Positions 841 to 42,577 of a stretch of DNA of 50,944 nucleotides are shown here, piece after piece. Position 1 is the stretch's first letter. Every line of letters starts with the position of its first letter. Below the pieces are notes generated by a model. That model had not been told where the DNA came from. It ran no database searches and saw only the letters and a list, made by a program, of their open reading frames with translations. The DNA lies in contig DYMH01000005.1 of assembly GCA_020721645.1 (NCBI GenBank), positions 1 through 50,944 on the forward strand. The letters run 5' to 3'. Position numbers and translations under genes: made by a program. This DNA is from Draconibacterium orientale. Its GTDB lineage: Bacteria; Bacteroidota; Bacteroidia; Bacteroidales; JAADGE01.

Positions 841-844
841 AACC

Positions 845-3283: not shown

Positions 3284-3292
3284 TTTTTTTTT

Positions 3293-3330: not shown

Positions 3331-3376
3331 TTCTTTACAAATCATTTATAAATTCCAATTTTAAAGCATCACTAAA

Positions 3377-6300
3377 ATGCCTGAAAATACGGAAACAGTT
3401 ACTTCCGAAAATAACACAAAAATCGAACTCGAAGCCGGAACCTACGAAATTATTCGTAAGCGTTTGGATAAATACGGCAACGAGCTAAGCGACAAATTTA
3501 GTTTGCTCAACAACGAACGCCGAAAAGTTTTCGGCTCTGCCGATGCTGCACTCATTGCAACCGAACGAATCATCACCGAAAACAACTGCATTCCGTCCGA
3601 TATGCAACAAGTGGGCAATATGTTCATTTTCGCTTACAATGTTTCGGTTCGCAAAAAAGAAATTGCCGCAGATGATGTTTTTAGTATCTATTCCTACCAA
3701 AATCACACATTTAAAAAAGAACCGCTCGATTTAATTTCCGATACAAGTTTTTTAACAGATTTTGCCGATTTATACAAATATCGCGAAAGCACACGATTTG
3801 TTAAATTTTCAGTTATCGGAATACATTTGTTCATGCTCTTTCGCACCGGAAGCGGTGATACCGACATCAAAGCCTTCAAATGGATAATCGACGGCAATCG
3901 ACTTCGATATGTTGATAACCGAAGCGACCACGAATTTCGTTTCCCCGCACAACACGAATTTTCGTGGACCAAAGCCACACGCGAAATGCACATCACGGGA
4001 AAGCACCCGCATGTTTCAATCGAAAACATTCTTTTTGTGGAAACAGTCGGAGGCGATTTAACAATTAAAGCCGAAAACAATACCGAAACCGGCAGCGGCG
4101 TATATGCCGAACCTGTTGAAAATGCCGACCAAACGCTCGACGATGCCGAATTTTTCTATTCCGTTCTCGGAAATATTATCATTCTAAAAATTCGTCCGTT
4201 CAAAGAAATAGATTACCGCTACATTGTTTACAGCTCCAAAACGAAAAGTGCCGTTCGTATTGATGCAATCAAAGACGCTTGCGTTTTATTGCCCGACAAT
4301 CAGGGAATTATTTTCTCGAACGGATATTATTTGCAAACCGGCGATTTTAAGTTTTTTGAAAATAATTTAAAAAACCTTGTTTTTGAAAAACGAATCGACT
4401 CGCCCAACGGCGAAGACTATATTTACACGTTTTACGAGCGAAACACCCGCTCTTATGTCTTGTTGAAATATAATTTGATAGAACAAAAACTCGACACCCC
4501 GATTATTTGCAACGGATTTTCGATTTTCGAGAACGGAGAAATGTGCAATTTTCGCAGCGACGGCGAGGCAAAGAAACACCATGTAGTTCAAATTTGGCGT
4601 ACAACGTTTTACAGTGCCGATTACGACACGGTTGTCGATAAAACATCGTATCTTTTTAAAATCGGAAACAAAGAACTCGTTAAAGGAATTGCCGAATGTC
4701 GCGAGGTGATTACTTTGCTTGCCAAAGACGATTCTTACACCAATTTGTATATCGAATTGGTACGAAAAACCTCGCAAATTCTCGACAATTATTATTGGAT
4801 TTCGCGAACGGAAACTTTTGAACTCAATATTTCGATTTCGGCAGTGAAAGAAGCCGCCGCTTCGGCAATAGATGAATACGAAAAGGTTGCTAAAATCAAA
4901 AAAAACACCTTACTGCAAACACAAAAAATTACCGGCGAAGCCGACAAACTGTTTGCGGAAATCAAGAACAAAAGTCTTCAAAATATCGAAGATTTTGTTC
5001 AATTGCTTTCACGATTGCGAATTATCAGAGGCGAATTAATTTCTTTAATACAATTAAGATATATCAATATTGAATCGGTTGAAAAATACGAAAAATCTGC
5101 CGCCGATTACAACAACCTGCTTTCGGAATCGTGCGTGGCTTTTTTGCTCGAAGAAACCGCCCTGAATCCGTACAAAGAAAAAGTAAATTTGATTCGAGAA
5201 AATACCGAAAAAATATCAAAAGTTACCGATGCCGATGATCTTGAAAAAGAAATCGGAAAAGTATCTTCGGAACTCGAAATGTTGATAGAAATTGTCAGCA
5301 ATCTGAAAATAAAAGATGCCGTTCAAACAGCCAAAATTATCGACACAATTTCGTCTATATATTCCAATTTCAACAAGATAAAAGCCGATTTGAAACGCAA
5401 AAGAGATGAGCTTTTTTTGCTTGAAGGAAAAGCCGAATTTTCATCGCAAATCAAACTCATTGGGCAAGCCGTTGTAAATTATCTTGATTTGTGTGATGCT
5501 CCCGAAAAAACCGATGAATATCTCACCAAACTGTTGGTTCAAATCGAAGAATTGGAAGGAAAATTTACCGAATTCGACGAATTTGTGAACGAAATAGGCA
5601 TCAAACGCGAAGAAATTCTCGATGCCTTTGAACAACGAAAAATTCAACTCACCGAAAAACGCAGCAAACGCACCGACACCCTCAAACAATCTGCCGAACG
5701 CATTCTTAAAGCCGTTTCCGGACGATTGGCAAAACTCGGATCCGAATCGGAAATCAACGGATATTTTGCTTCGGATATCATGGTAGATAAGGTTCGCGAC
5801 ATCGTTAAAGAATTGTTCGAACTGGGCGACAATGTGAAAGCCGATGATATCCAAAGCAAGTTGAAAACCGCCAAAGAAGATGCTTTTCGGCAGTTGCGCG
5901 ACAAAGTCGATTTATTTGTCGAAGGTGAAGATGTCATTAAATTCGGTCGTCATAATTTCACGGTAAATAAGCAACCGCTGGCATTGACTATGGTCAATCG
6001 CGGCGAAGATATGTTTATTCATCTTTCCGGAACCGGATTTTACGAACGTGTAGAAAACGAAGAATTTTATCAATTGCACGAATTTTGGGCTCAAAATATC
6101 ATTTCGGAAAACGACACCGTCTATCGCTCCGAATATTTGGCATATAAATTTTTAAACGAACAAATAGAAAATAACGAGTCTAAAATCGACGAACTTTTCA
6201 AAGCCGAAGACGCGAAACTTGCCGAAATGCTGCAAAATTTCATGTCGGTTCGTTATTCCGAAGGATACGAAAAGGGCGTTCACGACAGCGATGCTTTGGT

Positions 6301-8266
6301 AATTCTAAAATCATTAATCGAAATTCGTAAAAATGCCGATTTACTTCGATACTCTTCAAAGTCGAGAGCCGCCGCCGAATTATGGTTCAAAGAATTTGCA
6401 CCCAAAGAACAAAAAGAACTTTTGCATGCCCGCCTTCAAGGGATTGGTGCAATTTTAGAATCATTTCCCGGAAGCAATAACTTTAATGACATAAAAAAAC
6501 AGATTGAAAATCAGATTCTTGATTTCACAGTAAAAACAAATATTTTTTCCGGTGATATTGCCGAAGAAGCCGCAGAATATCTGTTTGCCGAATTAACAAG
6601 ATCCGATGTTTTTGTTTTAAACAGCATCGCTTCAAAATTATACACCGATTTCAACGATTTTCTGAAAATCAACTCAAAAACAACATCTTTTAAAACATCA
6701 ACCGACAAACTTAAATCAAATCCGGAAGCCCGATATTTATTGATTAGAGAATGGATAAAAGCCTTCGCCTCCATATCCGACGACAAATCGGTTTTATCAT
6801 ATATCGATGAAGTTGCCGTTACTGTTTTCACAAAATCCTTTGAATCAAAACGCTGTTTAGATGTTACATTGCAAGTGGATTTGGTCGGATTGGAAGGAAA
6901 TCACTCATTAATATCTGATAAAAAATATCATCTGAATTTCAACGAATTTATGCGTCGTTTGAAATATTTCGACACTCAAAAAGTAGTCGGATACAAGAAA
7001 TACACCGAACTTAAAAAACAACTCACCGAAAGTTTTGAAAACGAATTGCGATTGAACGAATTTAAACCTCGCGTAATGAGTTCTTTTGTGCGCAATCGTT
7101 TGATTGATAAAGTATATTTGCCGCTTATCGGAACCAATTTGGCAAAACAAATAGGTACGGCAGGCGAACAAAAGCGAACGGATTTGATGGGTATGTTGTT
7201 GCTGATTTCGCCGCCGGGTTACGGAAAAACTACTTTGATGGAATACATCGCCAATCGGCTCGGAATTATTTTCATTAAAATCAACGGTCCGGCTTTGGGG
7301 CACAGCGTTACTTCGGTCGATCCGCAGGAAGCTCCGAACGCCACCGCGCGCGAGGAATTGATGAAATTGAATTTGGCATTCGAAATCGGCGATAATGTAA
7401 TGATTTATGTTGATGATATTCAACATTGTCATCCCGAATTTTTGCAAAAATTCATCTCTTTGGCAGATGCTCAACGCAAGATAGAAGGAGTTTACAAAGG
7501 TCGAACGAAAACCTACGATTTCAGAGGGAAAAAAGTGTGTATCATCATGGCGGGAAATCCATATACCGAAAGCGGCGATGTGTTCAAAATTCCGGATATG
7601 CTCGCAAACCGTGCCGACATCTATAATTTGGGTGATATTTTGGGCGACAGTCGTGAAGAGTTTTTGATGAGTTATATCGAAAACAGCCTTACATCGAACA
7701 CTGTTTTGAATCAATTGAGCGGAAAAAGCCGAAACGATGTTTACACTTTGATTGATATTGCACAAAACGGACAAAAAGAAGGCATTCAGTATGAAGCAAA
7801 TCACAGCTCGGAAGAAATTAAAGAATACTTGTCGGTTTTAGAGAAACTGCTGAAAATTCGCGAAATTGTCAATACCGTCAACCAACAATACATCTATTCT
7901 GCGGGGCAAGCCGAAGCATACCGAATCGAACCGCCCTTTAAACTTCAAGGCTCGTATCGCGACATGAACAAATTGTCGGAAAAAGTAATGCCTATTTTGA
8001 ACGATGCCGAATTGGAAACACTGATTCTGTCGCACTACGAAAACGAATCGCAAACGCTCACCTCCGGAGCCGAAGCCAATTTATTGAAATTCAAAAAAAT
8101 GACCAAGCGAATCACCGCCGAAGAAGACCAACGGTTTTCGGAAATTATTGCGATATATCAGAAAAACAAACAAACGGATTCCGGAAGCCCAATTGCCTTG
8201 ATTTCCAAGCAAATGGGAGCAATATCACAGGGTTTGGACGGAATTGTTGATGCATTGAAAAAATAA
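3377..8266 (+). CDS. Giant (1629 aa) coiled-coil protein with C-terminal MoxR/AAA_5-type P-loop ATPase domain; N-terminal about 1200 aa of unknown function
   Basis: Uninterrupted 4.9-kb ORF. Walker A LLLISPPGYGKTTL, Walker B IYVDDIQ and an AAA_5/MoxR-like sensor region VCIIMAGNPYTESGDVFKIPDMLANRADIY. Beta-rich N-terminal domain and long predicted coiled coils in the middle. Confidence 0.8.
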   Translation: MPENTETVTSENNTKIELEAGTYEIIRKRLDKYGNELSDKFSLLNNERRKVFGSADAALIATERIITENNCIPSDMQQVGNMFIFAYNVSVRKKEIAADDVFSIYSYQNHTFKKEPLDLISDTSFLTDFADLYKYRESTRFVKFSVIGIHLFMLFRTGSGDTDIKAFKWIIDGNRLRYVDNRSDHEFRFPAQHEFSWTKATREMHITGKHPHVSIENILFVETVGGDLTIKAENNTETGSGVYAEPVENADQTLDDAEFFYSVLGNIIILKIRPFKEIDYRYIVYSSKTKSAVRIDAIKDACVLLPDNQGIIFSNGYYLQTGDFKFFENNLKNLVFEKRIDSPNGEDYIYTFYERNTRSYVLLKYNLIEQKLDTPIICNGFSIFENGEMCNFRSDGEAKKHHVVQIWRTTFYSADYDTVVDKTSYLFKIGNKELVKGIAECREVITLLAKDDSYTNLYIELVRKTSQILDNYYWISRTETFELNISISAVKEAAASAIDEYEKVAKIKKNTLLQTQKITGEADKLFAEIKNKSLQNIEDFVQLLSRLRIIRGELISLIQLRYINIESVEKYEKSAADYNNLLSESCVAFLLEETALNPYKEKVNLIRENTEKISKVTDADDLEKEIGKVSSELEMLIEIVSNLKIKDAVQTAKIIDTISSIYSNFNKIKADLKRKRDELFLLEGKAEFSSQIKLIGQAVVNYLDLCDAPEKTDEYLTKLLVQIEELEGKFTEFDEFVNEIGIKREEILDAFEQRKIQLTEKRSKRTDTLKQSAERILKAVSGRLAKLGSESEINGYFASDIMVDKVRDIVKELFELGDNVKADDIQSKLKTAKEDAFRQLRDKVDLFVEGEDVIKFGRHNFTVNKQPLALTMVNRGEDMFIHLSGTGFYERVENEEFYQLHEFWAQNIISENDTVYRSEYLAYKFLNEQIENNESKIDELFKAEDAKLAEMLQNFMSVRYSEGYEKGVHDSDALVILKSLIEIRKNADLLRYSSKSRAAAELWFKEFAPKEQKELLHARLQGIGAILESFPGSNNFNDIKKQIENQILDFTVKTNIFSGDIAEEAAEYLFAELTRSDVFVLNSIASKLYTDFNDFLKINSKTTSFKTSTDKLKSNPEARYLLIREWIKAFASISDDKSVLSYIDEVAVTVFTKSFESKRCLDVTLQVDLVGLEGNHSLISDKKYHLNFNEFMRRLKYFDTQKVVGYKKYTELKKQLTESFENELRLNEFKPRVMSSFVRNRLIDKVYLPLIGTNLAKQIGTAGEQKRTDLMGMLLLISPPGYGKTTLMEYIANRLGIIFIKINGPALGHSVTSVDPQEAPNATAREELMKLNLAFEIGDNVMIYVDDIQHCHPEFLQKFISLADAQRKIEGVYKGRTKTYDFRGKKVCIIMAGNPYTESGDVFKIPDMLANRADIYNLGDILGDSREEFLMSYIENSLTSNTVLNQLSGKSRNDVYTLIDIAQNGQKEGIQYEANHSSEEIKEYLSVLEKLLKIREIVNTVNQQYIYSAGQAEAYRIEPPFKLQGSYRDMNKLSEKVMPILNDAELETLILSHYENESQTLTSGAEANLLKFKKMTKRITAEEDQRFSEIIAIYQKNKQTDSGSPIALISKQMGAISQGLDGIVDALKK

Positions 8267-9218: not shown

Positions 9219-11375
9219 TTACTCTTCTCCCAATTCAGCTTCATGTTCTTTAATTAATTTTTCCTGAATATCGGTCGGCACCTGAGCATATTCGGCAAAA
9301 GCCATCTCGTATGTCGCACGTCCGCCGGTCAAAGAGCTCAGTGTCGTTGAATATTTGTTGAGTTCAGCCAAAGGAATTCGAGCTTTTATCACTTCAAAAC
9401 CTTTAATACTGCTCATTCCCATAATAATTGCACGTCTTCCCTGCAAATCACTCATCACATCTCCCATACGATCTCCCGGAACCATCACATCAACATCGTA
9501 AACAGGTTCCAATAATTTAGGCGAAGCTTTTTTAAAGGCTTCCGAAAAAGCTTTTGCGCCCGCCAATTTAAACGAAATTTCGTTGGAATCAACATCGTGC
9601 ATTTTTCCAAAATAAACACTTACACGAATATCACGGGCATAAGAACCTGTTAATGGACCAAATTCCATTTTCTCATTGATTCCTTTAATAATTGCCGGCA
9701 TGTAGCTGGCATCAATAACGCCACCGACAATACAATTATAAAAAATAAATTTTCCGCCCCACGGTAATTCAAATTCTTTGGTATCTCGAACCGAAACTAC
9801 ATATTCTTGATTGTTAATTTTAAACACTTTGGGTGCCGGTTTGTCATCGGCATAAGGCTCTATTATTAAATGAACTTCACCAAACTGTCCGGCACCGCCC
9901 GATTGTTTTTTATGGCGATAATCGGCTTGTGAAGGTTTGGTAATGGTTTCGCGGTACGGAATTTTCGGGGCAATAAATTCAGCGGCAATTTTAAATTCAT
10001 GGTCCAAGTACCATTTCAAAGTATTCAGGTGGTGTTCGCCCTGTCCGTGGATAATGAGTTGTTTTAATTCTTTTGAATATTCGAGTATCCATGTCGGGTC
10101 TTCATCATGCAATTTATGCAAAATTTCACCCAGTTTTTCATCATCGGCTTCGCTAACAGCTTTTATGGCTGTTCTGTATTTTGGGTTTGGAAATTCAAGA
10201 GGAGGAAATTTGAACTCTGTACCTTTTTCGCATAAAGTATGTTGAGCTTTTACCGTTTTTAATTTAATGGTAGCACCAATGTCGCCAGCCACAAGTTTTT
10301 CAACTTTGGTTCGTATTTTCCCATTCACTGCAAAAAGTTGAGACAGTCGCTCTTTGGCTTCTTTATTCATGTTGATTAAATCATCGCCTTCGGCTATTTC
10401 GCCCGACATGACTTTAAAGAACAAGATTTCGCCCAAATGTTGTTCAATGGTATTTTTAAAAATATAAACAGATTTTTTCCCCTTTGAATCGCATTTTACA
10501 TTTTTCCCGTCAGCTGTAACAGCTTCCGGCATCAAATCGGGCGATGGAACTGTGTTTGCAAGAAAATCGAGCAAGCGGCGTGTCCCGAAATTACTTCGGG
10601 CTGCTGTGCAGAAAATCGGAAACATTCCGCCGGTAATCAATCCTTTGGTAATGCCTTTTCGCATTTCTTCCTCAGTCAAGCTGCCTTTTTCAAAGAAAAT
10701 CTCCATTAAATTTTCATCATTTTCTGCAGCCGACTCGATCAACGCATTATGCAATTCAGTGGCTCGTTCTTTTTCCGATTCCGGTATGTCTGTTATCTTT
10801 GGTTCGGCTCCCGCTTTATCCCATGTGTACATTTTCATGGTTATCACATCGATGATTGAATTAAACCCAATTCCTTGATTAACAGGAAATTGAATGATTG
10901 CTATTTTATTGCTTAAGCGTTCTTTGATTTCGTCAACGGTCTTTTCAAAATTTGTCTTTTCGTGGTCCAAATGATTCACAACCATGATAACAGGAACATG
11001 ATGTTTTTCTGTCAAACGCCATGCCGATTCTGTTCCCACTTCAATACCATTTTGTGCATTTAGAACCAATACCGCAGCATCACTGACACGTAATCCCGAA
11101 ACAACGCCTCCCACAAAATCACCGGCACCGGGCGTATCTATTATATTTATTTTTTTATCAGCCCACAATGTGTGCAAAACTGTCGATGATATCGAACCAC
11201 CTTGTTCCTGTTCAATCACCCTGTAATCGGATACTGTGGTTTTCAAAGCTATATCGCCGATTCGGCTTATCAGTCCGCCTTCAAAAATCATGGCTTCAGC
11301 CAATGTCGTTTTGCCGGAACCTGCATTTCCTATAAAAGATAAATTCCTAATTTCATTCGTTTGATAGACTTTCAT
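9219..11375 (-). CDS. EF-G-like translational GTPase paralog (718 aa) with degenerate switch II
   Basis: Full five-domain EF-G architecture. G1 GNAGSGKTT. G3 is DTPGAGDF instead of the canonical DTPGHVDF. G4 is NHLD instead of NKxD. Divergent from rpsL. Confidence 0.8.
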   Translation of the reverse strand: MKVYQTNEIRNLSFIGNAGSGKTTLAEAMIFEGGLISRIGDIALKTTVSDYRVIEQEQGGSISSTVLHTLWADKKINIIDTPGAGDFVGGVVSGLRVSDAAVLVLNAQNGIEVGTESAWRLTEKHHVPVIMVVNHLDHEKTNFEKTVDEIKERLSNKIAIIQFPVNQGIGFNSIIDVITMKMYTWDKAGAEPKITDIPESEKERATELHNALIESAAENDENLMEIFFEKGSLTEEEMRKGITKGLITGGMFPIFCTAARSNFGTRRLLDFLANTVPSPDLMPEAVTADGKNVKCDSKGKKSVYIFKNTIEQHLGEILFFKVMSGEIAEGDDLINMNKEAKERLSQLFAVNGKIRTKVEKLVAGDIGATIKLKTVKAQHTLCEKGTEFKFPPLEFPNPKYRTAIKAVSEADDEKLGEILHKLHDEDPTWILEYSKELKQLIIHGQGEHHLNTLKWYLDHEFKIAAEFIAPKIPYRETITKPSQADYRHKKQSGGAGQFGEVHLIIEPYADDKPAPKVFKINNQEYVVSVRDTKEFELPWGGKFIFYNCIVGGVIDASYMPAIIKGINEKMEFGPLTGSYARDIRVSVYFGKMHDVDSNEISFKLAGAKAFSEAFKKASPKLLEPVYDVDVMVPGDRMGDVMSDLQGRRAIIMGMSSIKGFEVIKARIPLAELNKYSTTLSSLTGGRATYEMAFAEYAQVPTDIQEKLIKEHEAELGEE

Positions 11376-12829: not shown

Positions 12830-14944
12830 ATGGCAACACCGCTACAACATACGAGAAACATTGGCATAATGGCACATATCGACGCCGGTAAAACGACGAC
12901 GACTGAGCGTATCTTGTATTATACCGGTATTACCCATAAACTTGGCGAAGTACACGATGGTGCTGCCACCATGGATTGGATGATTCAAGAACAAGAACGA
13001 GGCATTACCATTACTTCTGCAGCAACGACAACCTATTGGAAATTCAAAGATATTGATTATAAAATTAACATCATTGACACTCCGGGACACGTCGATTTTA
13101 CCGTTGAAGTAGAGCGTTCGCTCAGAGTTCTCGATGGAGCTGTTGCAATTTTTTGTGCCGTCGGCGGTGTTGAACCTCAATCGGAAACCGTTTGGCGACA
13201 AGCCGACAAATACAATGTACCTCGCATTGCATTCGTGAACAAAATGGACCGTACCGGAGCCGATTTTTTTAAAGTTCTGACTCAAATTGAAAAAAGGTTA
13301 GGGAGCAATCCAATACCAATGCAAATACCAATCGGAGCAGAAGATAATTTTACGGGAGTTATCGACCTTATCGAAAGAAAAGCAGTTGTTTGGAAAGAAG
13401 ATGATACTTTGGGTGTCAATTACGAAATACAACAGATACCGGAAGATTATAAAGAATTAGCAGAAGAATGGCGCGAAAAATTGGTCGAAGCTGTTATCGA
13501 AACCGATGATGATTTATTACACCGTTTTTTCGAAAACAGAGACAACATCACCGTTGAAGAATTTATGTCGGCAGCTCGAAAATGCGTCATTACAAGAAAA
13601 ATTGTTCCCGTATTTTGCGGAGCAGCTTTCAAAAATAAAGGCATTCAGCGTTTGCTCGATGCAATTACGCAACTTCTCCCATCGCCCTTAGATATTGAGG
13701 CTGCAAAAGGGACAGAACCGCATACCGAAAAAGAAATATTAAGACACCCCAATGCCGATGAACCTTTTGCTGCATTAGCTTTTAAAATAGCAACCGATAA
13801 ATTTGTCGGACGTTTGGCTTATTTACGAGTTTATTCGGGCGTTCTCAAAGCAGGTTCTTACGTTTTCAATCCCCGTACAAAAAAGAAAGAAAGAATTTCA
13901 CATCTCTACCAAATGCACGCCAACAAGCAAATTTCGATAGAAGAAATTTCAGCAGGTGATATTTGCGGTGCTGTTGGTTTTAAAGATATACGCACAGGTG
14001 ATACACTGTGTGCCGAAAATAAACAAATTGTTCTGGAATCCATGACATTTCCCGAGCCGGTCATCGGAATTTCAGTGGAACCTAAAACTCAAAACGATAT
14101 TGATAAATTAAGCATCGCTTTATCAAAACTCTCCGAAGAAGACCCAACATTTGTTGTAAAAGTTGATGATGAAACAGGGCAAACCATTATCTCAGGAATG
14201 GGCGAATTGCACTTAGAAATATTAGTAGACCGACTGAAACGCGAGTTCAATGTTGAATGTAACCAAGGAAAACCACAAGTTACATACAAAGAGTCCATAA
14301 CAAGTGTAGTAGAATACCGAGAATTATTCAAAAAACAATCAGGAGGGAAAGGTAAATTTGCTGATATAACTGTCAGAGTTTCACCCTGCGACACTCAAAT
14401 CAAAGGTCTTCAATTTATTGATGCAACAAAAGGCGGCGTAATTCCAAAAGAATATATCCCTGCAATAAAAAAAGGCTTTGAACAAGCCATGAAAAACGGA
14501 CCTGTGGCAGGTTTTCAAATGGACAGTTTAAAAGTAGAATTACTCGATGGAACATTTCACCCTGTTGATTCAGATTCTTTATCATTCGAAATTGCAGCAA
14601 AATTAGCTTTTAAAAATGCAAGCATACAAGCGGGAGCTGTTCTGTTAGAACCGATTATGAATCTTGAAGTTATTACAGCCGATGAATATGTTGGCGATGT
14701 AATATCCGACCTCAACAGACGACGCAGCCACATTGGAGGAACCGAAGAAAGAGGAGGAGCGCAAGTTGTTAAAGCCAAAGTCCCATTAGCCGAACAATTC
14801 GGATACGTAACTGTTCTCAGGTCCATTACATCAGGACGCGGTTCGGCTACGATGGAGTTTTCACATTTTCAACAAGTTACTGAAAATATATCCAAAAGTA
14901 TTATTGAAAAAATTAAAGGAAAATTTACATTTATAAACATATAA
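12830..14944 (+). CDS. fusA: Elongation factor G
   Basis: [15 protein letters not shown] and DTPGHVDF motifs, 704 aa, in the canonical str-operon position. Confidence 0.95.
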
Positions 14945-33763: not shown

Positions 33764-36700
33764 TTAGACGAATCTTAAACCAACAACCGTTATATCATCG
33801 CGTTGTTCTTCGCTTATTTGAAAGTCGGACAATGCTTTTTCGATTCCGTTGAGTTGCTCTTTCATCGGGAGTTCGGCGTGTTTATTTATTAATTCTGTAA
33901 ATTTATCGAAACCGAATTTTTCGCGTTCTTTGTTGTTTTGGTCGGCAAATCCGTCGCTGCTAAGGTAGAGAATATCGTTTTGGGCAGCTTCAAATTCTAA
34001 ATCCGAAAAAACAAGCTCTTTGTTTCGTGACAGAAATCCGCCGATATGTTTTCGACTGCCTTTGAGTCGTTCTAATGTTTTTGTTTCCGATTTATAGTAT
34101 AATAAACTGATTTTTGCTCCCGAAAAGACAATTTTATACAAATTTTCGGTATTTTTCTCGATTCTGCAAAGAGCAATATCCATTCCATCGTTATTATCGC
34201 CGGTTTCTTGATTGAGCGATAACCGAACACCTTGGTCGAGGGCTACCAAAATTTGCGAGGGTTGATAAATGTGTTCGTCTTTCACAATTTCGTTTAGTAA
34301 CCTACTGCCTATCAGCGACATAAATGCACCGGGGACACCATGCCCCGTGCAATCGACTGTGGCAAAAAACAGATATTCTTTCCCTTTTTCATACTCCGAT
34401 TTAAAAAACCAATAGAAATCGCCTGAAACGATATTTCGGGGTTTGTACAAAATAAAATTCTCGAAATAGGAATCGAGTTGTTTTTTTTGTGGAAGTATCG
34501 ACTGTTGAATGGTTTTAGCATATTTTATACTGCCCATTATCAGTTCGTTCTGCATTCGGACTGTTTCGTTTTGTTCGCCGAGTTGAACAATAATTTCAGC
34601 TAGAGCATCAGACTGGCTTTGTATTTCTTCTTTTTGCACTTCAAGTTCTTCATTTTTTTGTTCTATTTCTTGGGTACGTTCTTTTACCAATTGTTCAAGA
34701 TGTATTTTTTGTGCTTTGATTCGGTTTATCCTGCTTTTCAGAAACGAATAGATTAAACCCACCACACCTACGAACACCAAGATACGAAACCACCATTCTG
34801 CCCAAAAAGGAGGCTTTACGATAATATCAATTTCTGTCCCCAGTAAATTCCATACCCCATCACTGTTCGAGCCTTTCACCTTAAAAATATAATGACCTGG
34901 GTCGAGATTGGTGTAAGTCGCCGTTCTGTTTTTTGCATCGGTATAAATCCAATCCTTGTTGAACCCCTCCAATTTATAAGCGTATTTGTTGTTTTCGGGT
35001 ACGCTGAAATGAAGAGCCGAAAATTCAAAAGAAATAACTTTATCGTTAAAATTGAGTATAATTTTTTTTGTTTCTGTGATACTTTGTTTTAAAAGCGAAT
35101 TATAGCCAATTTTAATTGAGGTATTGAACATTTTGAAATCGGTTATCACAACCGGCGGAAAATATGCATTATCTTGGATATTTGCAGGATAAAACGCATT
35201 GAGACCGTTGATTCCTCCGAAAAACAGCTCGCCCGAAGACGATTTGCAGGCTGCTCCCCAAAAAAATTCGTTGCTTTGCAAGCCGTCACTTTCATCGTAG
35301 TTTGTAAATTTTTCGGTTTTGACTTCAAATTTCGACAAGCCTTTGTTGGTACTCAGCCACAAATTGCCGTTATTTTCATCGAAAACTGCATAAACCACAT
35401 TGTTCGACAAACCATTGCTTTGTGTATAGTGTTTGAAAATATGTTTATTATTTTGAATTTCAATTTTATTCAAGCCACTGCCGAATGTTCCTGCCCAAAT
35501 GACATTATTTTTGTCGATATACAGTGAAATGATGCGGTTGTCGTTCAAACTTGCCGAATCTTTTTCGTTGTGTGTAAACAATTTAGATTGATAATTTCCA
35601 TTATCGGTTTTATATATTTTGTGCAGTCCGCCCCACGAACCAACCCATATATTTCCTTGCCTGTCTTCTTGCATCGCCCCTTGAATATTTCCTTTCTCGG
35701 TGTTCGGAAAATTGATAATGTGCAAAAATGTGTTTGATTTTTTATCGAAAACATCAACACCGCCTGCTGTTCCAATCCAGATTTTGTGGTCGGAACTTTC
35801 AAATATTTTTTGTATCGTATTGCTGATGAGTCCCGAATTTGATTGTATTAAATGCTCAAATTGAACGATTTTTGTTTTATCGGTTTCCGAAAAAATTGCT
35901 TTCTGAATACCACCGTTCCAAGTTCCAATCCACAAAATGCCTTCACTGTCGCGAAGAATTGATGAAACGGTATTGTCGTAGAGTGTTTTTTCATCGTAAG
36001 GAATTTTTTGGTAGCGGTCTATTTTGTTGGTTTTTCGGTCGAATCGAACCAAACCGCCTTCCACATAGCCAATCCACACAATATCATTGCTTTCGGCAAA
36101 AACAGAACGAATTGTTTTATCAGGCAACGAGTTGTTGCTGAGTGAATTGCTGTATTTGTAGAGTTTAAATTTTTTCGATAAAATATCGAATTTATTCACA
36201 CCGCGTTCCCATGTGCCAATCCAAATAATTCCTGCCGCATCTTTGTACAGTGAAGCTATGTTGTTGTGACTTAGACTTTTTGTATCGAAACTGTTGTGCT
36301 GATAGGTGTAAAACGTTGTTGTTCTTGGGTCGAAAAGGCTTACGCCATCGCTGGTTCCAATCCACACAAATCCCTGAGAATCTTCCATTATTTTTAGTAC
36401 CACATTATTGCACAATCCGTTTGGTTGATTTGCATGATAGGCGTATTTTTTAAATGTTTGGGTTTTCGGTTCAAAAATGTTAAGTCCTTCGCGGCTTCCA
36501 ACCCAAATTTGCCCGCGACTGTCTTCATAAACACAGGGCAAAAAATCGTTCGATAAACTGTTATTATCTTTTGGGTTGTGTTTGAAATGTGTAAATTTTT
36601 CGCTACTCGGATCGAACATGTCTAATCCGCCATTTGTGGCTAACCACAACATTCCTTTTTTATCGATAACAATATCGTTTACTTCGTTTTGACACAAACT

Positions 36701-37243
36701 GTTTTCATTATTTCGGTTATGTTGATAGGATTTGAATGTTTTGTTTTTTTTATCGAATCTGTTCAGTCCTCCGCCTTCGGTTCCAATCCACAGAATGCCG
36801 TGTTTATCTTCGGCAATGCAGCGAATGCTATTGTTACTCAGGCTATTGATGCTGTTTGGCTCGTGGATAAAGCGGGAAAAAGTTTCGGAATTGCGATGAA
36901 ACAGATTTAAACCGTTGCCAAATGTACCTACAACCAATACCGAATCCTTGGTTTCATAAATCGCTTTGATGATGTTGCCCGAAATGGACAAACTGTCGTT
37001 TTTAGAGTTTTTATAGATTTTAAAATTATAACCGTCGAAACGGTTCAGCCCATCGTGCGTGCCGAGCCAAATAAATCCTTTGTGGTCCTGACAAATTGCA
37101 AATACGGAGCTTTGCGACAAGCCTTGTTCTATGGAAATATGTTCAAATTGAACATTAAAATCTTGTGCTTTTACATTTTGCCGGAACAAAAAAAAATGAA
37201 AAATAATGCTGATAAAAATTAAAAATTTCAATTTTTGGAACAT
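33764..37243 (-). CDS. Sensor phosphatase: signal peptide, periplasmic two-component-regulator beta-propeller repeats with Y_Y_Y domain, one TM helix, coiled coil, and a C-terminal PP2C/SpoIIE Ser phosphatase. Start chosen at the signal-peptide Met; the track ORF extends to 37333.
   Basis: More than 12 Reg_prop-like repeats (...WIGT..GL..FD...). Y_Y_Y motif GHYIFKVKGSNSDGVW. TM WWFRILVFVGVVGLIYSFL. PP2C motifs SGDFYWFF, DCTGHGVPGAFMS and SSDGFADQ. Confidence 0.85.
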   Translation of the reverse strand: MFQKLKFLIFISIIFHFFLFRQNVKAQDFNVQFEHISIEQGLSQSSVFAICQDHKGFIWLGTHDGLNRFDGYNFKIYKNSKNDSLSISGNIIKAIYETKDSVLVVGTFGNGLNLFHRNSETFSRFIHEPNSINSLSNNSIRCIAEDKHGILWIGTEGGGLNRFDKKNKTFKSYQHNRNNENSLCQNEVNDIVIDKKGMLWLATNGGLDMFDPSSEKFTHFKHNPKDNNSLSNDFLPCVYEDSRGQIWVGSREGLNIFEPKTQTFKKYAYHANQPNGLCNNVVLKIMEDSQGFVWIGTSDGVSLFDPRTTTFYTYQHNSFDTKSLSHNNIASLYKDAAGIIWIGTWERGVNKFDILSKKFKLYKYSNSLSNNSLPDKTIRSVFAESNDIVWIGYVEGGLVRFDRKTNKIDRYQKIPYDEKTLYDNTVSSILRDSEGILWIGTWNGGIQKAIFSETDKTKIVQFEHLIQSNSGLISNTIQKIFESSDHKIWIGTAGGVDVFDKKSNTFLHIINFPNTEKGNIQGAMQEDRQGNIWVGSWGGLHKIYKTDNGNYQSKLFTHNEKDSASLNDNRIISLYIDKNNVIWAGTFGSGLNKIEIQNNKHIFKHYTQSNGLSNNVVYAVFDENNGNLWLSTNKGLSKFEVKTEKFTNYDESDGLQSNEFFWGAACKSSSGELFFGGINGLNAFYPANIQDNAYFPPVVITDFKMFNTSIKIGYNSLLKQSITETKKIILNFNDKVISFEFSALHFSVPENNKYAYKLEGFNKDWIYTDAKNRTATYTNLDPGHYIFKVKGSNSDGVWNLLGTEIDIIVKPPFWAEWWFRILVFVGVVGLIYSFLKSRINRIKAQKIHLEQLVKERTQEIEQKNEELEVQKEEIQSQSDALAEIIVQLGEQNETVRMQNELIMGSIKYAKTIQQSILPQKKQLDSYFENFILYKPRNIVSGDFYWFFKSEYEKGKEYLFFATVDCTGHGVPGAFMSLIGSRLLNEIVKDEHIYQPSQILVALDQGVRLSLNQETGDNNDGMDIALCRIEKNTENLYKIVFSGAKISLLYYKSETKTLERLKGSRKHIGGFLSRNKELVFSDLEFEAAQNDILYLSSDGFADQNNKEREKFGFDKFTELINKHAELPMKEQLNGIEKALSDFQISEEQRDDITVVGLRFV

Positions 37244-37559
37244 AAGCTTCGTATTTGGATTTTTTAGAGTAATCGCAACCTGTTTGAACAGAGAGTAAAA
37301 TCCTTCGCAAACGTTTGAATTGTATCCTATCAAAAAAAAGATATTTACAAAGGGTTTATCGTAAATTTACTTTTATTTTTTAAAGATAAAAATTATCTTA
37401 ACAATAAATTAATATGTTTATTATGAAATGGTAATATTTTCAATTGAATCATGACGAATTCATATTTCTCGTGCAATTCAAAATATATATTTATTAAACA
37501 ATATTTATTTTTTTTGATACGATATTTTTGTGCAATTTTGTGATATAACTTAAAAGAAT

Positions 37560-38642
37560 ATGTTTGCATTTTACGAAAATTTTGAAAAAGAAAACATCAA
37601 GATTGCTTATTTTGGAAGATTTACCAATAATATAAGTACAATGTTGATAGAATTGCTTGAAAGCTATGAATTATCCGAAAATCAGCAGGGTAAATTTTCA
37701 AATGCAGTTTCTACATTTATTATCGATTCGTTTCGTAATGTTGATATACAATACAATCCTTGGGATTTTGAATCGGAAGATTTTATAAATCAAAAAGACT
37801 ATTTACAACTCAATATTCTCAAAGATCGTATTATGGTTTCTTCGGCTAATGTAATCGAAAAAAAATATGTACAACTTTTTGACGATGAAATTAATTATCT
37901 GAACCTGATGGACAGTGTGGAATCGAAACTTCAATATCACGGTGCTTTATCCAAAACACGAATATCGGCAGGTGCGAGTTTGGCGATGGTTGAAATGTTA
38001 AGAAAATCGAATCATACCTTACAAAAAATGTTTGTTCCGATAAATGAAAAATATTCTCGCATGTTTTTGAGTTTGGAGGTTTTTAACAATAGAAATTCAA
38101 TTGTGCGGGAAGGCGGAATTTTCGAAATTGAACGAAATTACAAATTGCTGACAGAGCGAAATACATTGATATTTTACAAAGGAGATTTTTCGACCGAATC
38201 CAATGCCAATTTGGTGGAACTGGTGCATGACAATTTGATTGACGGAAATTCAATGTCTTCGGGAAATATCAAAAATATGATTACTGTTATCGAAATCATT
38301 CAAAATGTTACAAAACACGGTAAGTCTGTCGATGGGCACAAACCCGGAATATTCACTCTTTTTGAAACAAACAAAGAACGTTTTCTCGAATGCAGTAATT
38401 ACATTGATTTGGAGCATTATGAAACATTTAAAAACTATATCGAAAAATTAAAATCGAGTAGCAACGAAGAAATTCAAAAATATTACAAAAAGAAACTGTA
38501 CAATACCGAAATCTCCGAACTTGGAAACAGCGGCATTGGTTTGCTCGAAATTGCAATGTTTACACGAAATAATTTTTCTTTCACATTTACAGAAACTTCC
38601 GAAAAGGAAATATTTTACACTCTAATAATTAAAACAGCCTAA
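37560..38642 (+). CDS. GHKL-type ATPase/kinase-like protein (SiaB/RsbW-like C-terminal domain) with an about-220-aa N-terminal domain of unknown function
   Basis: N-box EIIQNVTKHG and G2-box GNSGIGLLEI in the C-terminal third. Divergent from the PP2C sensor. Followed within 3 bp by a DUF1987-like gene. Confidence 0.55.
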   Translation: MFAFYENFEKENIKIAYFGRFTNNISTMLIELLESYELSENQQGKFSNAVSTFIIDSFRNVDIQYNPWDFESEDFINQKDYLQLNILKDRIMVSSANVIEKKYVQLFDDEINYLNLMDSVESKLQYHGALSKTRISAGASLAMVEMLRKSNHTLQKMFVPINEKYSRMFLSLEVFNNRNSIVREGGIFEIERNYKLLTERNTLIFYKGDFSTESNANLVELVHDNLIDGNSMSSGNIKNMITVIEIIQNVTKHGKSVDGHKPGIFTLFETNKERFLECSNYIDLEHYETFKNYIEKLKSSSNEEIQKYYKKKLYNTEISELGNSGIGLLEIAMFTRNNFSFTFTETSEKEIFYTLIIKTA

Positions 38643-38644
38643 AT

Positions 38645-39010
38645 ATGGACACCATAGTTATAAACAAAACACAAGAAACGCCATTAATAAAACTGAACGG
38701 AGATGAAGGTATTTTTTCGATTTCCGGCATATCATATCCCGAAAATGTTGTTGCATATTATAAACCCGTTTTTGATTATATCGAACTTTATAAAACGGCA
38801 CCAAAGCAGAAAACAATACTCGAATTTAATTGGATGTATTTCAACACCGGGACTTCAAAAGCTATTGTTAGAATGATATTTGCCTTAAAAGATGTGAGCC
38901 CGGAATTTGAAGTAAAATGGTTTTGCCAAGATGATGTTGATATTATGATTGAAAAAGGTCTCGAACTCAAAGAAATGCTTAATATTAACTTAACAATTGT
39001 TTACGTTTAA
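38645..39010 (+). CDS. DUF1987/SiaC-like small protein, a putative phospho-substrate of the adjacent kinase and phosphatase
   Basis: 121 aa. Size, secondary-structure pattern and genomic context (tight coupling to a GHKL kinase, adjacent to a PP2C) match the SiaC family. Assigned from memory of the family, not by search. Confidence 0.5.
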   Translation: MDTIVINKTQETPLIKLNGDEGIFSISGISYPENVVAYYKPVFDYIELYKTAPKQKTILEFNWMYFNTGTSKAIVRMIFALKDVSPEFEVKWFCQDDVDIMIEKGLELKEMLNINLTIVYV

Positions 39011-39198
39011 CATTTTAACGCCTTAATTTCGGATTGTTTCTTTAATTTACGGAACGATTCCCCAAAATGATATATCCACAAAAAATGGAGTAAAAATATG
39101 ATTTTGCTGAAAATCCTTTTGGGTGTTTTTTGATTAAAATATTCAGTATTTAAGTTGTTGATATATAGATGTATAATTAGAACAAATCGCTTTGTTTT

Positions 39199-40356
39199 AT
39201 GCCTTTTTTAAAACTAAAACCATTTTTTAGAGTATTTTTTTTCATTTTAAGTCTTGTTCTTGCGACAAGTCTTTTCGATGTACATGCCCAAGTGTCGGTG
39301 TATGTTATCTCACGATTCGACACAATCATTGTACCTGAATATCATTTTGAATTTAAAAAAAACGAGAAATATGTATTCGTGCAGATGAGTTTTGGAAGTT
39401 CGACAATTAAAAATTCAGAAGAGATTTTAAAATTAAAACAACAAACGATTAAGAAAATAAGCTTACTCTGTACAGATTATCCCAATCGCCTCATTTCGGA
39501 AGAACTCAACAAAAAACGATTGCTCGAGCTTTATTTAATTGCACCTCAACTTTTTAACAACAACACCGTCAAATGGGAAATCGTAAGGCAAACCGGTGCC
39601 GATTCCAAAAATTGCTATAATTTTCGGCATGGTTTTGTTATCACCTACGAATCGAACAGAACCTTATCCTACGGCGAAACTGCACGACAGTATTTTCGTC
39701 GGATTTTGACCCATAAAAGCCGATTGGAAGATTCCACTATAATTAAAGTTTTAGAACGCCACTCCGACTGGGATAATATGTTGATAGTGTGCGATATAAC
39801 TCAAAGTATGTCGCCCTTTATTGCCGAAATTTTATTGTGGTATAATTTGAATTTCGAGCAAAAGAAAAATCAAACTTTTGTATTTTTTAACGACGGAGAC
39901 AAACAAGCCGACTCGAAAAAACGTATCGGGCAAACCGGCGGAATTTATTACTGTAATAAACAAAATATCGATTCGATACTCAATACTGCCGTGCAAACCA
40001 TGGAAAAAGGCACCGGAGGCGATGGTCCCGAAAATGATGTCGAAGCCTTGCTTTTTGCCATGAACAAATTTCCCGAAAAACAAAATGTCGTTCTCATAGC
40101 CGATAATTTATCGACCATGCGAGATTACAGCCTAATCAAACAAATAAATAAACCCGTAAAAATAATCCTTTGCGGACTGACAGACCGAATCAATGCCGAA
40201 TACCTTGATATGGCTTATCAAACCGGCGGGGAGGTATATACAATAGAAAGCGACATTGTGGGTTTGATTAAATATAAAGAAGGCGAAATTGTTAGAATTG
40301 GACAACAAAATTATAAAATAATTAACGGGCGATTTATTTTGACAGAATCGCCATAA
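39199..40356 (+). CDS. Secreted protein with C-terminal vWA-like domain
   Basis: Signal peptide. MIDAS-like DITQSMS. Beta-strand hydrophobic runs (VVLIADN) consistent with a vWA fold. Confidence 0.45.
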   Translation: MPFLKLKPFFRVFFFILSLVLATSLFDVHAQVSVYVISRFDTIIVPEYHFEFKKNEKYVFVQMSFGSSTIKNSEEILKLKQQTIKKISLLCTDYPNRLISEELNKKRLLELYLIAPQLFNNNTVKWEIVRQTGADSKNCYNFRHGFVITYESNRTLSYGETARQYFRRILTHKSRLEDSTIIKVLERHSDWDNMLIVCDITQSMSPFIAEILLWYNLNFEQKKNQTFVFFNDGDKQADSKKRIGQTGGIYYCNKQNIDSILNTAVQTMEKGTGGDGPENDVEALLFAMNKFPEKQNVVLIADNLSTMRDYSLIKQINKPVKIILCGLTDRINAEYLDMAYQTGGEVYTIESDIVGLIKYKEGEIVRIGQQNYKIINGRFILTESP

Positions 40357-40514
40357 TATTTTTTTGAAAAAACTTATAAATATGACTCGCTCATTTATTT
40401 AAAATTTCAAAGAATATCAGATTTTCAAAGTCAATTATTTTTTGTAAAGAAATAATCTAATAATTTCGATAAAAATATTAATTTTGAAATTCAATTCACT
40501 AAAATAACAACAAC

Positions 40515-41126
40515 ATGAAAAAACTATTTCTTATTTTATCTGTATTCTTGATTGTCTATTCAGCCACTGCCCAAAAAATCGGCTTAAAAATTGGCTTAAA
40601 TATGGCAACTATCAAAAGCGATCAGCCTAATTTCGATGAATACAAAAAAAGTCTTATCGGCGTGAACGGCGGATTGGTATTAGAAAAAAAAGTTGTGCCT
40701 TATCTCTCACTTCAAGGCGAAGTCTTGTTTTCGCAGAAAGGATTTTATAGCAAAGAAGATGAAGGAAATTATGAGAAAACGATTGTCAATTATCTTGAAG
40801 TTCCGCTTTCGGTAAAAATAAAAGTTGGACCAACACCCTTGTTTTTCTTAGCAGGTCCGTATTTCGGCTATGCCATGAACGGAAAAATAAAATCGAAACA
40901 AACAGTTTTAGGCGTATCCACAGAAAGTGATGATGACATCAATTGGGACACATACAAAATGAAACGCTTCGATTTGGGAATCAATGCCGGTTTGGGAATG
41001 AAATTCGGTCCCATATTTATCGAAGGTCGTTATGGCTTAGGTTTAACAGATTTGAACGATGATTCCAACGAATCGTACTATTACAAAAACAGTGTTTTTG
41101 GCGTTTCGGTAGGTGTTATTTTCTAA
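40515..41126 (+). CDS. Small outer-membrane beta-barrel protein (OmpA-N/porin-like family)
   Basis: Signal peptide, alternating amphipathic beta-strands, C-terminal ...GVSVGVIF. Confidence 0.7.
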   Translation: MKKLFLILSVFLIVYSATAQKIGLKIGLNMATIKSDQPNFDEYKKSLIGVNGGLVLEKKVVPYLSLQGEVLFSQKGFYSKEDEGNYEKTIVNYLEVPLSVKIKVGPTPLFFLAGPYFGYAMNGKIKSKQTVLGVSTESDDDINWDTYKMKRFDLGINAGLGMKFGPIFIEGRYGLGLTDLNDDSNESYYYKNSVFGVSVGVIF

Positions 41127-41145
41127 TTTACGAACCAAAAATATA

Positions 41146-41182
41146 AAAATCCGCAAATCGAAAAGTTTGCGGATTTTTTTTG
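41146..41182 (+). terminator. Intrinsic terminator
   Basis: aaatccgcaaa-N8-tttgcggattt hairpin followed by a T-run. Confidence 0.7.
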
Positions 41183-41217
41183 TTAAAGTATCGTGCAAAA
41201 AATCCTATCTAAGGGAC

Positions 41218-41362
41218 TGTAACGAAATATGCTATTCATTTCGCTAAATCGTTCGGCTAAGGCTCTGCCTTAGTCGAATATTTTAAAAGAGGCTTGCCTC
41301 GAATAAATACAATCAAAACAAAGCGAATTTGTTTTTAAAAATATCCATGTTATTTCGTTACA
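41218..41362. repeat. MITE-like element, family 2, copy 1 (145 bp)
   Basis: 12-13-bp terminal inverted repeats (tgtaacgaaatat / atatttcgttaca). Central hairpin ttcggctaagg-ctctg-ccttagtcgaa. Near-identical inverted copy at 46916-47066. Confidence 0.75.
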
Positions 41363-41427
41363 AATCCTAAGAGTTTAAAAAATGAATAAAAATTATGGTG
41401 CTATTCCGAAATACTGTGATAATTTTT

Positions 41428-41566
41428 AACTATCGCCGGCTTTTAAGCCGGTGTCATACAAACTATTAGACGGCTTTAGCCACCAATTTTATAACATTAT
41501 AAAAAATGAAAGGCTAAAGCCAAATGACGTTTTTAATTTACACCGGCTTAAAAGCCGGCGATAGTG
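41428..41566. repeat. MITE-like palindromic element, family 3 (139 bp) with perfect 25-bp TIRs
   Basis: Left end ctatcgccggcttttaagccggtgt and right end acaccggcttaaaagccggcgatag are perfect reverse complements. Each arm is itself palindromic (ccggcttttaagccgg). An inner inverted pair ggctttagcc/ggctaaagcc is also present. Confidence 0.7.
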
Positions 41567-42109: not shown

Positions 42110-42577
42110 TTAAATTGTAAATCGATTGATATATTCCGAAAAATCTTTCAATTTTGGTCGATAATCGGTATCGAGCAGGGGCGAGGAAATTAAAAAATCT
42201 GCCGTAGAACGATTGCAGGCATTGGGCAAATTATAGAGAACTGCAATACGCAAAAGAGCTTTAACATCAACATCGTGAGGTTGTTGTGTCATCGGGTCCC
42301 AAAGAAAAATCATCAGGTCTATTTTTCCGTCGGCTATCATGGCACCCAGTTGTTGGTCTCCGCCTAGCGGTCCCGATTTCAGTTTGATGATGTTGTGTTT
42401 TATTGCTTCGCGGTCGTCGGCTTTTTGCAAAATGGCATCTTCAACCATTTTTCCGGTAGTTCCGGTGCAAACCAAACGATATTTAACCAAATTTTCCCAG
42501 TTCCACTCCACCCATTCCACCAAGTCTTTTTTTCGGGCATCGTGGGCTACCAGGGCTATTGTTTTCACTTTGTTCAT
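42110..42577 (-). CDS. mgsA: Methylglyoxal synthase
   Basis: IALVAHDARKKDLVEW... MgsA signature, 155 aa. Confidence 0.85.
   Translation of the reverse strand: MNKVKTIALVAHDARKKDLVEWVEWNWENLVKYRLVCTGTTGKMVEDAILQKADDREAIKHNIIKLKSGPLGGDQQLGAMIADGKIDLMIFLWDPMTQQPHDVDVKALLRIAVLYNLPNACNRSTADFLISSPLLDTDYRPKLKDFSEYINRFTI

Follow-up and report, generated by a model that had tools for sequence, protein, structure and literature searches.

A SiaABC-like module with a periplasmic propeller sensor phosphatase and a tandem SiaB-family kinase in Bacteroidota

The SiaABC switch has been defined biochemically in Pseudomonas aeruginosa (PMC7647112, PMC7278518, PMC8457831). There, SiaB phosphorylates and SiaA dephosphorylates SiaC on Thr68, and SiaB dimerises (PMC7647112, PMC7278518). 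Unphosphorylated SiaC activates SiaD, a co-transcribed diguanylate cyclase, and to date SiaABC has been studied only as a controller of this type of enzyme in Pseudomonas. Here, we describe a related module in a 50.9-kb (50,944-nt) stretch of Draconibacterium orientale DNA (Bacteroidota; assembly GCA_020721645.1, contig DYMH01000005.1; from here on, the window). An initial annotation, made from the sequence alone, had proposed that the region 33764-41126 encodes a sensor phosphatase, a kinase, and a substrate protein analogous to SiaA, SiaB, and SiaC, respectively, followed by genes for a secreted von Willebrand factor A (VWA)-like protein and a small outer membrane β-barrel protein. All five open reading frames (ORFs) exist as described. 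We conclude that the module is probably a Ser/Thr phospho-switch of the SiaABC type, with a phosphatase controlled from the periplasm, a duplicated kinase whose C-terminal half acts on SiaC, and an output encoded elsewhere.

The gene for the sensor phosphatase is located on the minus strand at 33764-37243 and encodes a protein of 1,159 aa with a SiaA-like C-terminal part. Its longest ORF begins with a TTG at 37333; the gene call of the Joint Genome Institute (JGI) begins with the ATG at 37243, and this start gives a signal peptide-like N terminus, in which residues 1-26 (MFQKLKFLIFISIIFHFFLFRQNVKA; 37166-37243, minus strand) were identified by eye as a putative signal peptide or anchor. Based on Pfam, the protein contains Reg_prop repeats (3e-63, in 11 stretches), a Y_Y_Y domain (2.3e-19; 34814-35008, minus strand), and a SpoIIE domain (1.1e-19), all above the gathering cut-offs. 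The Reg_prop β-propellers and Y_Y_Y make up the predicted periplasmic sensor (residues 34-814; 34802-37144, minus strand), which matches the periplasmic structures of hybrid two-component systems (HTCS) of Bacteroides thetaiotaomicron from end to end (4A2L, 6e-129; 3V9F, 2e-93). Thus, the sensor is homologous to HTCS periplasmic domains, as had been suggested. It is followed by a transmembrane helix (residues 817-835, WWFRILVFVGVVGLIYSFL; 34739-34795, minus strand) and a charged helical, coiled-coil-like linker (residues 836-913, KSRINRIKAQKIHLEQLVKERTQEIEQKNEELEVQKEEIQ...; 34505-34738, minus strand), both recognised by eye. Using Pfam, HisKA, HATPase_c, receiver, and AraC domains were not found in the protein, and the cytoplasmic part consists of the coiled coil and the SpoIIE/PP2C domain. 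Except for its length, initially given as 1,160 aa, the proposed architecture of this protein thus stands.

The PP2C/SpoIIE Ser/Thr phosphatase domain (residues 956-1158; 33770-34378, minus strand) has the PP2C domain of P. aeruginosa SiaA as its nearest relative among solved structures (6K4E, 9e-33), and its GDFY, VDCTGHGVPGA, SSDGF, and RDDIT motifs align with the metal-site residues of SiaA as listed in PMC7647112. The NCBIfam SiaA model NF038263 matched the C-terminal 272 aa (4.9e-55, 187 bits versus an equivalog cut-off of 700); the sensor part of the protein is unrelated to that of SiaA.

Transcribed divergently on the plus strand is the gene for the 360-aa kinase. This protein matches DUF6272 in Pfam (1.1e-30) and the SiaB_fam_kinase model NF038262 of NCBIfam (126 bits versus a cut-off of 85), the latter in residues 4-174 and, with the best match, 194-357. 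Because both models match in two stretches, the N-terminal part is a second SiaB-like domain. The kinase, therefore, is a tandem SiaB composed of an N-terminal GHKL-like domain with degenerate ATP-site motifs (residues 1-183; 37560-38108, plus strand) and a C-terminal GHKL kinase domain with intact motifs (residues 184-360 and stop codon; 38109-38642, plus strand). In the initial annotation, the GHKL motifs had been placed in the last third of the protein, preceded by an unexplained N-terminal domain of about 220 aa; the assignment to the SiaB family holds, the motifs fill the C-terminal half, and the N-terminal domain is a diverged SiaB-like domain that matches the N-half profile of the family at 2e-38 and the C-half profile at 1e-16. 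The duplication is seen using profiles; with BLASTP, the two halves did not match each other significantly (E = 0.1). Similarly, phmmer with the 360-aa protein alone did not find SiaB in the PDB, and a family profile was needed, which matched SiaB (6KKO_A) at 5e-21 through the C-terminal half.

The window kinase aligns over its full length with 102 and with 335 family members. An AlphaFold model based on the 102-sequence alignment had a predicted local distance difference test (pLDDT) score of 85.1, lowest at residues 61-80 and 131-140, and a predicted template-modelling (pTM) score of 0.86. In Foldseek, the best PDB matches of this model were the two SiaB chains in the P. aeruginosa SiaB-SiaC complex (6KKO_A/B, target TM scores of 0.80-0.81, with 0.80 for 6KKO_A), in agreement with the GHKL fold initially predicted for the protein. 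The next matches were the anti-sigma kinases SpoIIAB (1TIL, 1TID, and 1L0O), UsfX (8IH8), and RsbW (6M36), all with a probability of 1.0 and target TM scores of 0.59-0.69.

The siaC gene (38645-39010, plus strand) begins 2 nt after the stop codon of the kinase gene rather than 3 bp as first noted. The 121-aa product matches SiaC/DUF1987 (PF09345) at 8.6e-27 with 93.6 bits versus a cut-off of 24.5, in line with its initial assignment, and aligns gap-free to P. aeruginosa SiaC (6K4F/6KKO, 4.4e-7). Because of this gap-free alignment, Thr68 of the window protein (codon 38846-38848, plus strand) falls on the Thr68 that is phosphorylated experimentally. All 74 SiaC homologues collected from the loci surveyed below have Ser or Thr at this position; the initial annotation had let the identity of the protein depend on both a DUF1987 match and a conserved phosphorylatable residue, and the protein has both.

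Tandem SiaB proteins have a length of ~360-370 aa and are encoded at at least 447 loci in species-representative genomes; among the loci listed, nearly all are from Bacteroidota, including the cultured Cesiribacter andamanensis AMV16 and Nafulsella turpanensis ZLM-10 (loci L038 and L039). A word-indexed search returned few relatives, a profile search returned 232 at E ≤ 1e-5, and an exhaustive search returned 4,175 clusters (50% identity) at E ≤ 1e-3, of which 691 had E ≤ 1e-30. To compare gene arrangements, we surveyed 84 non-redundant Bacteroidota loci, in which ORFs were called and labelled using profiles seeded from the window proteins. siaC was located immediately downstream of the tandem siaB gene on the same strand in 62 of these loci, and two further loci gain a SiaC, one as a missed ORF (L038) and one as a fusion (L086). 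A PP2C gene was located at a distance of at most five genes from tandem siaB in 49 of the 84 loci, often in two to three copies. The co-occurrence in Bacteroidota that the initial annotation called for is thus borne out, and Reg_prop/Y_Y_Y-PP2C proteins of the window type adjoin tandem SiaB-SiaC in seven other loci. We also scanned 65 PP2C proteins, i.e., the window phosphatase and homologues neighbouring the module; SpoIIE was detected in 52, TPR in ~27, PAS in ~14, and Reg_prop together with Y_Y_Y in 8 (window included), and GAF-PP2C proteins occur in the closest relatives.

Two types of natural fusions were observed. In locus L094 (GCA_016763665.1, JAESTI010000304.1, positions 1-4507), Reg_prop/Y_Y_Y, SpoIIE, and tandem SiaB are encoded by one ORF, which runs off the end of the contig, and siaC is located 4 nt after this ORF; in this way, L094 compresses the whole triad of the window into two genes. 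Moreover, several proteins of 500-512 aa are fusions of tandem SiaB and SiaC. Its recurrence in many genomes means that the gene arrangement is not due to chance. Rather than being unique to the window, the architecture is seen repeatedly in Bacteroidota, and a joint function of the three proteins is supported by their conserved gene adjacency and by the natural fusions. Together with the similarity of the PP2C domain to that of SiaA and the retained metal-site motifs, these observations support the analogy to the SiaA/SiaB/SiaC triad.

The same survey bears on the alternative that the phosphatase is merely a neighbour that acts on some other, STAS-type substrate, and that SiaB and SiaC depend on a different PP2C or have none at all. 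SiaA-like PP2Cs, which have diverse sensors, are very abundant in Bacteroidota, with >6,700 matches versus about 700 tandem-SiaB clusters (E ≤ 1e-30), and 35 of the 84 loci have no PP2C within five genes, both of which fit this alternative. However, a PP2C adjoins the module in the other 49 loci, frequently as multiple copies; the propeller type recurs beside it and, in L094, is physically fused to tandem SiaB; and the PP2C domain is closest to that of SiaA among solved structures. We, therefore, consider it very unlikely that the phosphatase acts independently of SiaB and SiaC.

We note that two to three different sensor-PP2C genes are located in a row beside a single tandem siaB-siaC pair in many loci (L030, L035, L028, L040, L048, L054, L083, and others); L030, for instance, has a 1,225-aa propeller type along with 598-aa and 533-aa PP2C types. 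These arrangements suggest that several inputs converge on one substrate. Also, two SiaC paralogs follow tandem SiaB in six loci (L041, L044, L059, L064, L075, and L082). Comparing the paralogs of L041, L044, L059, L075, and L082, those of four related loci fell into two orthologous groups with identities of 65-77% within and about 35-43% between groups, and one possibility is that each kinase half has its own substrate.

The window kinase differs from its family in the N-half. In a census of 335 distinct tandem SiaBs, in which seven ATP-site positions of the N-half motif set were scored, 317 were intact at all seven. The family consensus motifs of the N-half are ExxQN and K-GGAGLG; the corresponding window sequences are DSFRN and AGASLA, with five of the seven positions changed (D56, R59, A137, S140, and A142), making the window protein the most deviant of the 335. 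It also has a 1-residue insertion after the N-box and a 2-residue deletion before the G-box. The N-half is 33-39% identical to that of the nearest full-length relatives versus 45-46% for the C-half, and in these relatives the N-halves are themselves conserved at least about as well as the C-halves. Because an identical tandem SiaB protein recurs in several independent metagenome assemblies, the sequence of the window kinase is not an assembly error. The contig originates from the metagenome samples JGI 3300000233 and 3300000228, with the record names TB_FS06_10 and TB_PC08_66, which we take to be samples from the sulfidic Frasassi caves.

With the most degenerate motifs of all tandem SiaBs in the census and an N-half that has diverged faster than its C-half, the window kinase could be on its way to loss as part of a decaying, non-functional system. 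We regard this explanation as extremely unlikely, since none of the three ORFs is disrupted, several independent metagenome assemblies contain the identical protein, the motifs of the C-half, Thr68 of SiaC, and the catalytic motifs of the PP2C domain are all retained, and the AlphaFold model still predicts a folded N-half (pTM of the whole protein, 0.86). Most likely, the only role of the N-terminal SiaB-like domain of the window protein is that of a docking surface or of a structural partner in a pseudo-dimer.

In the C-half of the window kinase, the motif residues E245, Q248, N249, H253, G325, and G327 are intact, and E245 corresponds in the alignment to Glu61 of P. aeruginosa SiaB, which is predicted to be the catalytic residue of that kinase. 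Two indirect lines of evidence suggest that the C-half is the domain acting on SiaC. First, the C-half profile gives P. aeruginosa SiaB a score of 99.5 bits, compared with 69.8 bits for the N-half profile. Second, the C-half motifs are degenerate in 7 of the ~12 loci without an adjacent SiaC versus 4 of the ~62 loci with one (Fisher p = 4e-4 for the first-pass 2x2 table, before the counts were corrected). The changes in the SiaC-less loci are mostly non-conservative (G325, Q248, and E245), those in the SiaC-bearing loci are conservative, and the N-half is never degenerate in SiaC-less loci.

Based on these findings, we propose the following model. The periplasmic β-propeller/Y_Y_Y domain would sense an extracytoplasmic ligand, and this signal would pass through the transmembrane helix and the coiled-coil linker to alter the activity of the cytoplasmic PP2C domain. 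This domain would remove the phosphate from Thr68 of SiaC, the C-terminal GHKL domain of tandem SiaB would rephosphorylate it, and the phosphorylation state of SiaC would decide whether a downstream partner is bound, with the unphosphorylated form engaging the partner. In Bacteroidota, this partner would be a protein other than a diguanylate cyclase that is encoded elsewhere. The tandem arrangement may represent a covalent version of the P. aeruginosa SiaB dimer. As for the ligand, domains of this sensor type reportedly bind oligosaccharides, as in the HTCS BT4663. If the phosphatase responds to ligands of this class, the module would be a possible route by which extracellular carbohydrate-type signals are converted into Ser/Thr phosphorylation instead of a His-Asp phosphorelay.

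Several observations weigh against this model. The switch is known here from sequence, predicted structure, and gene linkage, not from biochemistry. All three proteins score below the cut-offs of the NCBIfam equivalog models, with SiaB (NF038264) at 46.8 versus 225 and SiaC (phos_prot_SiaC) at 59 versus 150, in addition to the SiaA score given above; they are, therefore, family members and not orthologues. About four independent lineages underlie the link between loss of the C-half motifs and lack of SiaC, and the statistics ignore kinship; because the seven deviant loci represent only these lineages, the association is suggestive and not proof. Family-wide, the N-half is more strictly conserved than the C-half and could be the principal kinase, in which case the kinase activity of the window protein might be low or absent. 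Apart from housekeeping synteny, the 84 loci show no conserved neighbours of the module. Finally, the window has no SusC/D polysaccharide-utilisation genes, unlike a typical HTCS locus, and because no such genes flank the sensor, a glycan ligand is suggested by mere analogy.

Concerning the output, no G[GAS][DE]EF motif is present in any frame of the 50.9-kb window, in line with the lack of a diguanylate cyclase noted initially, and no real diguanylate cyclase is encoded nearby in the 84 loci. Two GGDEF-type motif matches were detected among the ORFs of all loci, and neither is a cyclase: GADEF is in a 169-aa ORF, and GGEEF is in a protein that by inspection resembles an outer membrane protein. 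The output would not be c-di-GMP synthesis. Consistently, the early Bacteroidetes genomes encoded no diguanylate cyclases in a 2005 census (PMC1183210). The recurrent neighbours of the module are, by sequence inspection, housekeeping genes (DapF, RpoD, an HtrA-type protease, and short-chain and Zn-dependent dehydrogenases) and reflect lineage synteny. Sigma-factor domains were absent from the window ORFs scanned, and, apart from the RpoD synteny of one clade, none was consistently linked to the module across the 84 loci, which leaves room for a sigma factor encoded elsewhere.

The main rival to our model is a classical partner switch, in which tandem SiaB, as a covalent counterpart of the SpoIIAB/RsbW/SiaB homodimer, mainly by its N-half holds a target such as a sigma factor or another regulator, dephosphorylated SiaC binds the kinase and thereby frees the target, and SiaC has no other partner. 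The anti-sigma kinases that follow SiaB in the structural comparison agree with this possibility, as does the lack of an output gene linked to siaC among the surveyed loci. Moreover, conservation within the tandem SiaB family is highest in the N-half, and tandem SiaBs without an adjacent SiaC or PP2C exist in which the N-half is intact, which argues for an N-half role that is independent of SiaC. A partner switch of this type would explain both the conservation of the N-half elsewhere and the existence of SiaC-less tandem SiaBs. However, the window ORFs scanned include no sigma factor gene, and the sole recurrent sigma neighbour is the housekeeping RpoD, which is restricted to a single clade and lies on the other strand. 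To our knowledge, Bacteroidota lack the σF/σB-type sigma factors that are bound by GHKL anti-sigma factors. It also counts against this rival that, in P. aeruginosa, SiaC and not SiaB binds the output (PMC7278518). In the window, the nucleotide site of the N-half is degenerate, and such a role would, therefore, be altered or lost here. All considered, we find a classical partner switch unlikely.

More tentatively, tandem SiaB could be a hub with two functions. In this scheme, which is conceivable but doubtful, the C-domain would be the SiaC kinase, and the strictly conserved N-domain, likewise nucleotide-dependent, would phosphorylate or sequester another target. Several sensor phosphatases (TPR, PAS, GAF, and propeller types) would converge via SiaC on an output independent of c-di-GMP, in a phylum that is largely without c-di-GMP signalling, and the window would represent a natural variant with a dead N-half. 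If so, this variant would separate the two functions.

As opposed to our model of an output encoded elsewhere, the initial annotation had raised the possibility that the two genes downstream of siaC (39199-41126) are the regulated output, which would imply either a common transcript with siaB-siaC or control of the two genes by the module. The first gene encodes a secreted protein of 385 aa, whose VWA status is based on a weak, sub-threshold Pfam match (VWA_4, 5.7e-4, 19.9 bits versus a cut-off of 27) and a DxTxS...T...D pattern recognised by eye; an AlphaFold model generated without an alignment had a pLDDT of 43.5, too low for use. The second gene encodes a 203-aa OMP_b-brl_2 barrel protein (1.5e-24). 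Both genes are on the same strand as siaB-siaC, there is no terminator-like site between siaC and the gene for the 385-aa protein, and directly after the barrel gene, at 41145-41178, there is a strong bidirectional terminator-like hairpin with a 14-bp stem and T-runs on both sides, which is the only convincing terminator in the region 37200-41500. The 188-bp spacer (39011-39198) also has no match to the Bacteroidetes promoter motif TAnnTTTG on the plus strand; because this motif is found in the window about as often as expected by chance (79 versus 68 ± 9), its absence tells little. Homologues of the two genes are confined to near-identical copies of the window contig (L001-L004) and absent from the other ~80 loci, and a phospho-switch at the protein level needs no operon-linked structural genes. 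Because they are not conserved with the module, the two genes are probably unrelated to it, and we consider their being its output improbable.

The two transcription units of the module are separated by an AT-rich intergenic region of 316 bp (37244-37559), which presumably contains the promoters of both. It includes a direct repeat, TTyTyGTGCAATT, at 37466-37478 and 37525-37537 (TTCTCGTGCAATT / TTTTTGTGCAATT) with a spacing of 59 nt, which could be the site of a regulator or a chance match in AT-rich DNA. A TAnnTTTG match is located at 37523-37530. A scan for sigma-70 promoters identified 26 versus 19.8 expected, i.e., chance level, and was uninformative.

Three kb downstream of siaB-siaC, the window encodes a methylglyoxal synthase (mgsA; 42110-42577, minus strand). 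mgsA is also located directly after a SiaC-less tandem siaB in L078 (9205-9675) and L081 (9227-9691), and in L043, L080, and L092 a gene for a metallo-β-lactamase (MBL)-fold hydrolase, glyoxalase II-like by eye, is in its place. With three loci each, the linkage of mgsA or the MBL hydrolase to tandem siaB is based on too few cases and is probably synteny.

The rest of the window contains ribosomal protein operons and genes for elongation factor G (EF-G), SecY, NfnAB-like proteins, an amino acid permease, MgsA, a tandem Usp protein, a C25 peptidase of the type IX secretion system, and an [FeFe]-hydrogenase. EF-G is encoded by two paralogous genes (9219-11375, minus strand, and 12830-14944, plus strand); one is located in the str operon after the gene for ribosomal protein S7, and the other, more diverged copy is on the opposite strand just upstream. 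Three co-directional genes at 166-8266 (plus strand) encode proteins of 224 and 812 aa, both without a Pfam match, followed by a 1,629-aa protein with DUF3686 ("ATPase involved in DNA repair", 9e-172), DUF7902, and an AAA domain, and thus form an uncharacterised cluster with a large ATPase. In PADLOC, this cluster had merely a faint match to mad8 (3.5e-4), and no defence-system match was detected among the module proteins.

The components of the module are already named in databases (NCBI "SiaB family protein kinase" and Pfam "SiaC family") and, therefore, are not new in themselves. The literature searched contained no mention of DUF6272 or of Reg_prop/Y_Y_Y combined with PP2C. It likewise contained no description of the tandem kinase, of a SiaA-like phosphatase with an HTCS-type sensor, of a cyclase being systematically absent, or of several sensor phosphatases converging on one SiaB-SiaC pair. 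In Bacteroidota, the same kinase/phosphatase/substrate core is widespread without a cyclase, and with a duplicated kinase and interchangeable phosphatase sensors, raising the testable question of what SiaC or the tandem kinase targets in this phylum.

The window module shares with P. aeruginosa SiaABCD (PA0172-PA0169) a membrane-anchored PP2C whose catalytic domain is, among solved structures, closest to that of SiaA (6K4E, 9e-33), a GHKL-like kinase of the SiaB family (5e-21 for the family profile and a TM score of 0.80 for the fold, both with 6KKO_A), a DUF1987/SiaC phosphoprotein with Thr68 in register, and the adjacency of the kinase and substrate genes. It differs in that no SiaD or other diguanylate cyclase is encoded at the locus, and in that the phosphatase gene is divergent rather than the first gene of the operon. 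P. aeruginosa SiaB is a single, dimerising domain of ~180 aa, whereas the window kinase is a 360-aa tandem with a degenerate N-terminal copy. Also, the sensor is a Reg_prop/Y_Y_Y propeller, and the SiaA model covers just the C-terminal 272 residues. To Bacteroides HTCS (BT4663; 4A2L/4A2M, 3V9F, and 3OTT), the sensor has full-length homology, with two Reg_prop propellers and Y_Y_Y followed by a transmembrane helix; however, the coiled coil and PP2C replace HisKA-HATPase-REC-AraC, and no SusC/SusD genes are nearby.

With the RsbU/RsbV/RsbW and SpoIIE/SpoIIAA/SpoIIAB modules of Bacillus, the module shares the logic of a PP2C, a GHKL Ser/Thr kinase, and a small phospho-substrate, and the fold predicted for the kinase matches those of SpoIIAB, RsbW, and UsfX. 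Although SiaC is structurally STAS-like (PMC7647112, PMC8457831), the window substrate matches DUF1987 and not Pfam STAS, the kinase matches DUF6272/SiaB and not HATPase_c_2, and no cognate sigma factor is linked. In Campylobacterota, modules of a periplasmic-sensor PP2C, a GHKL Ser/Thr kinase, and STAS proteins have been predicted and are predicted to regulate c-di-GMP enzymes (PMC9239204). Those modules have true STAS proteins and neither a propeller/Y_Y_Y sensor nor a tandem kinase, but in both cases a periplasmic-sensor PP2C and a GHKL kinase are predicted to set the phosphorylation of a small protein.

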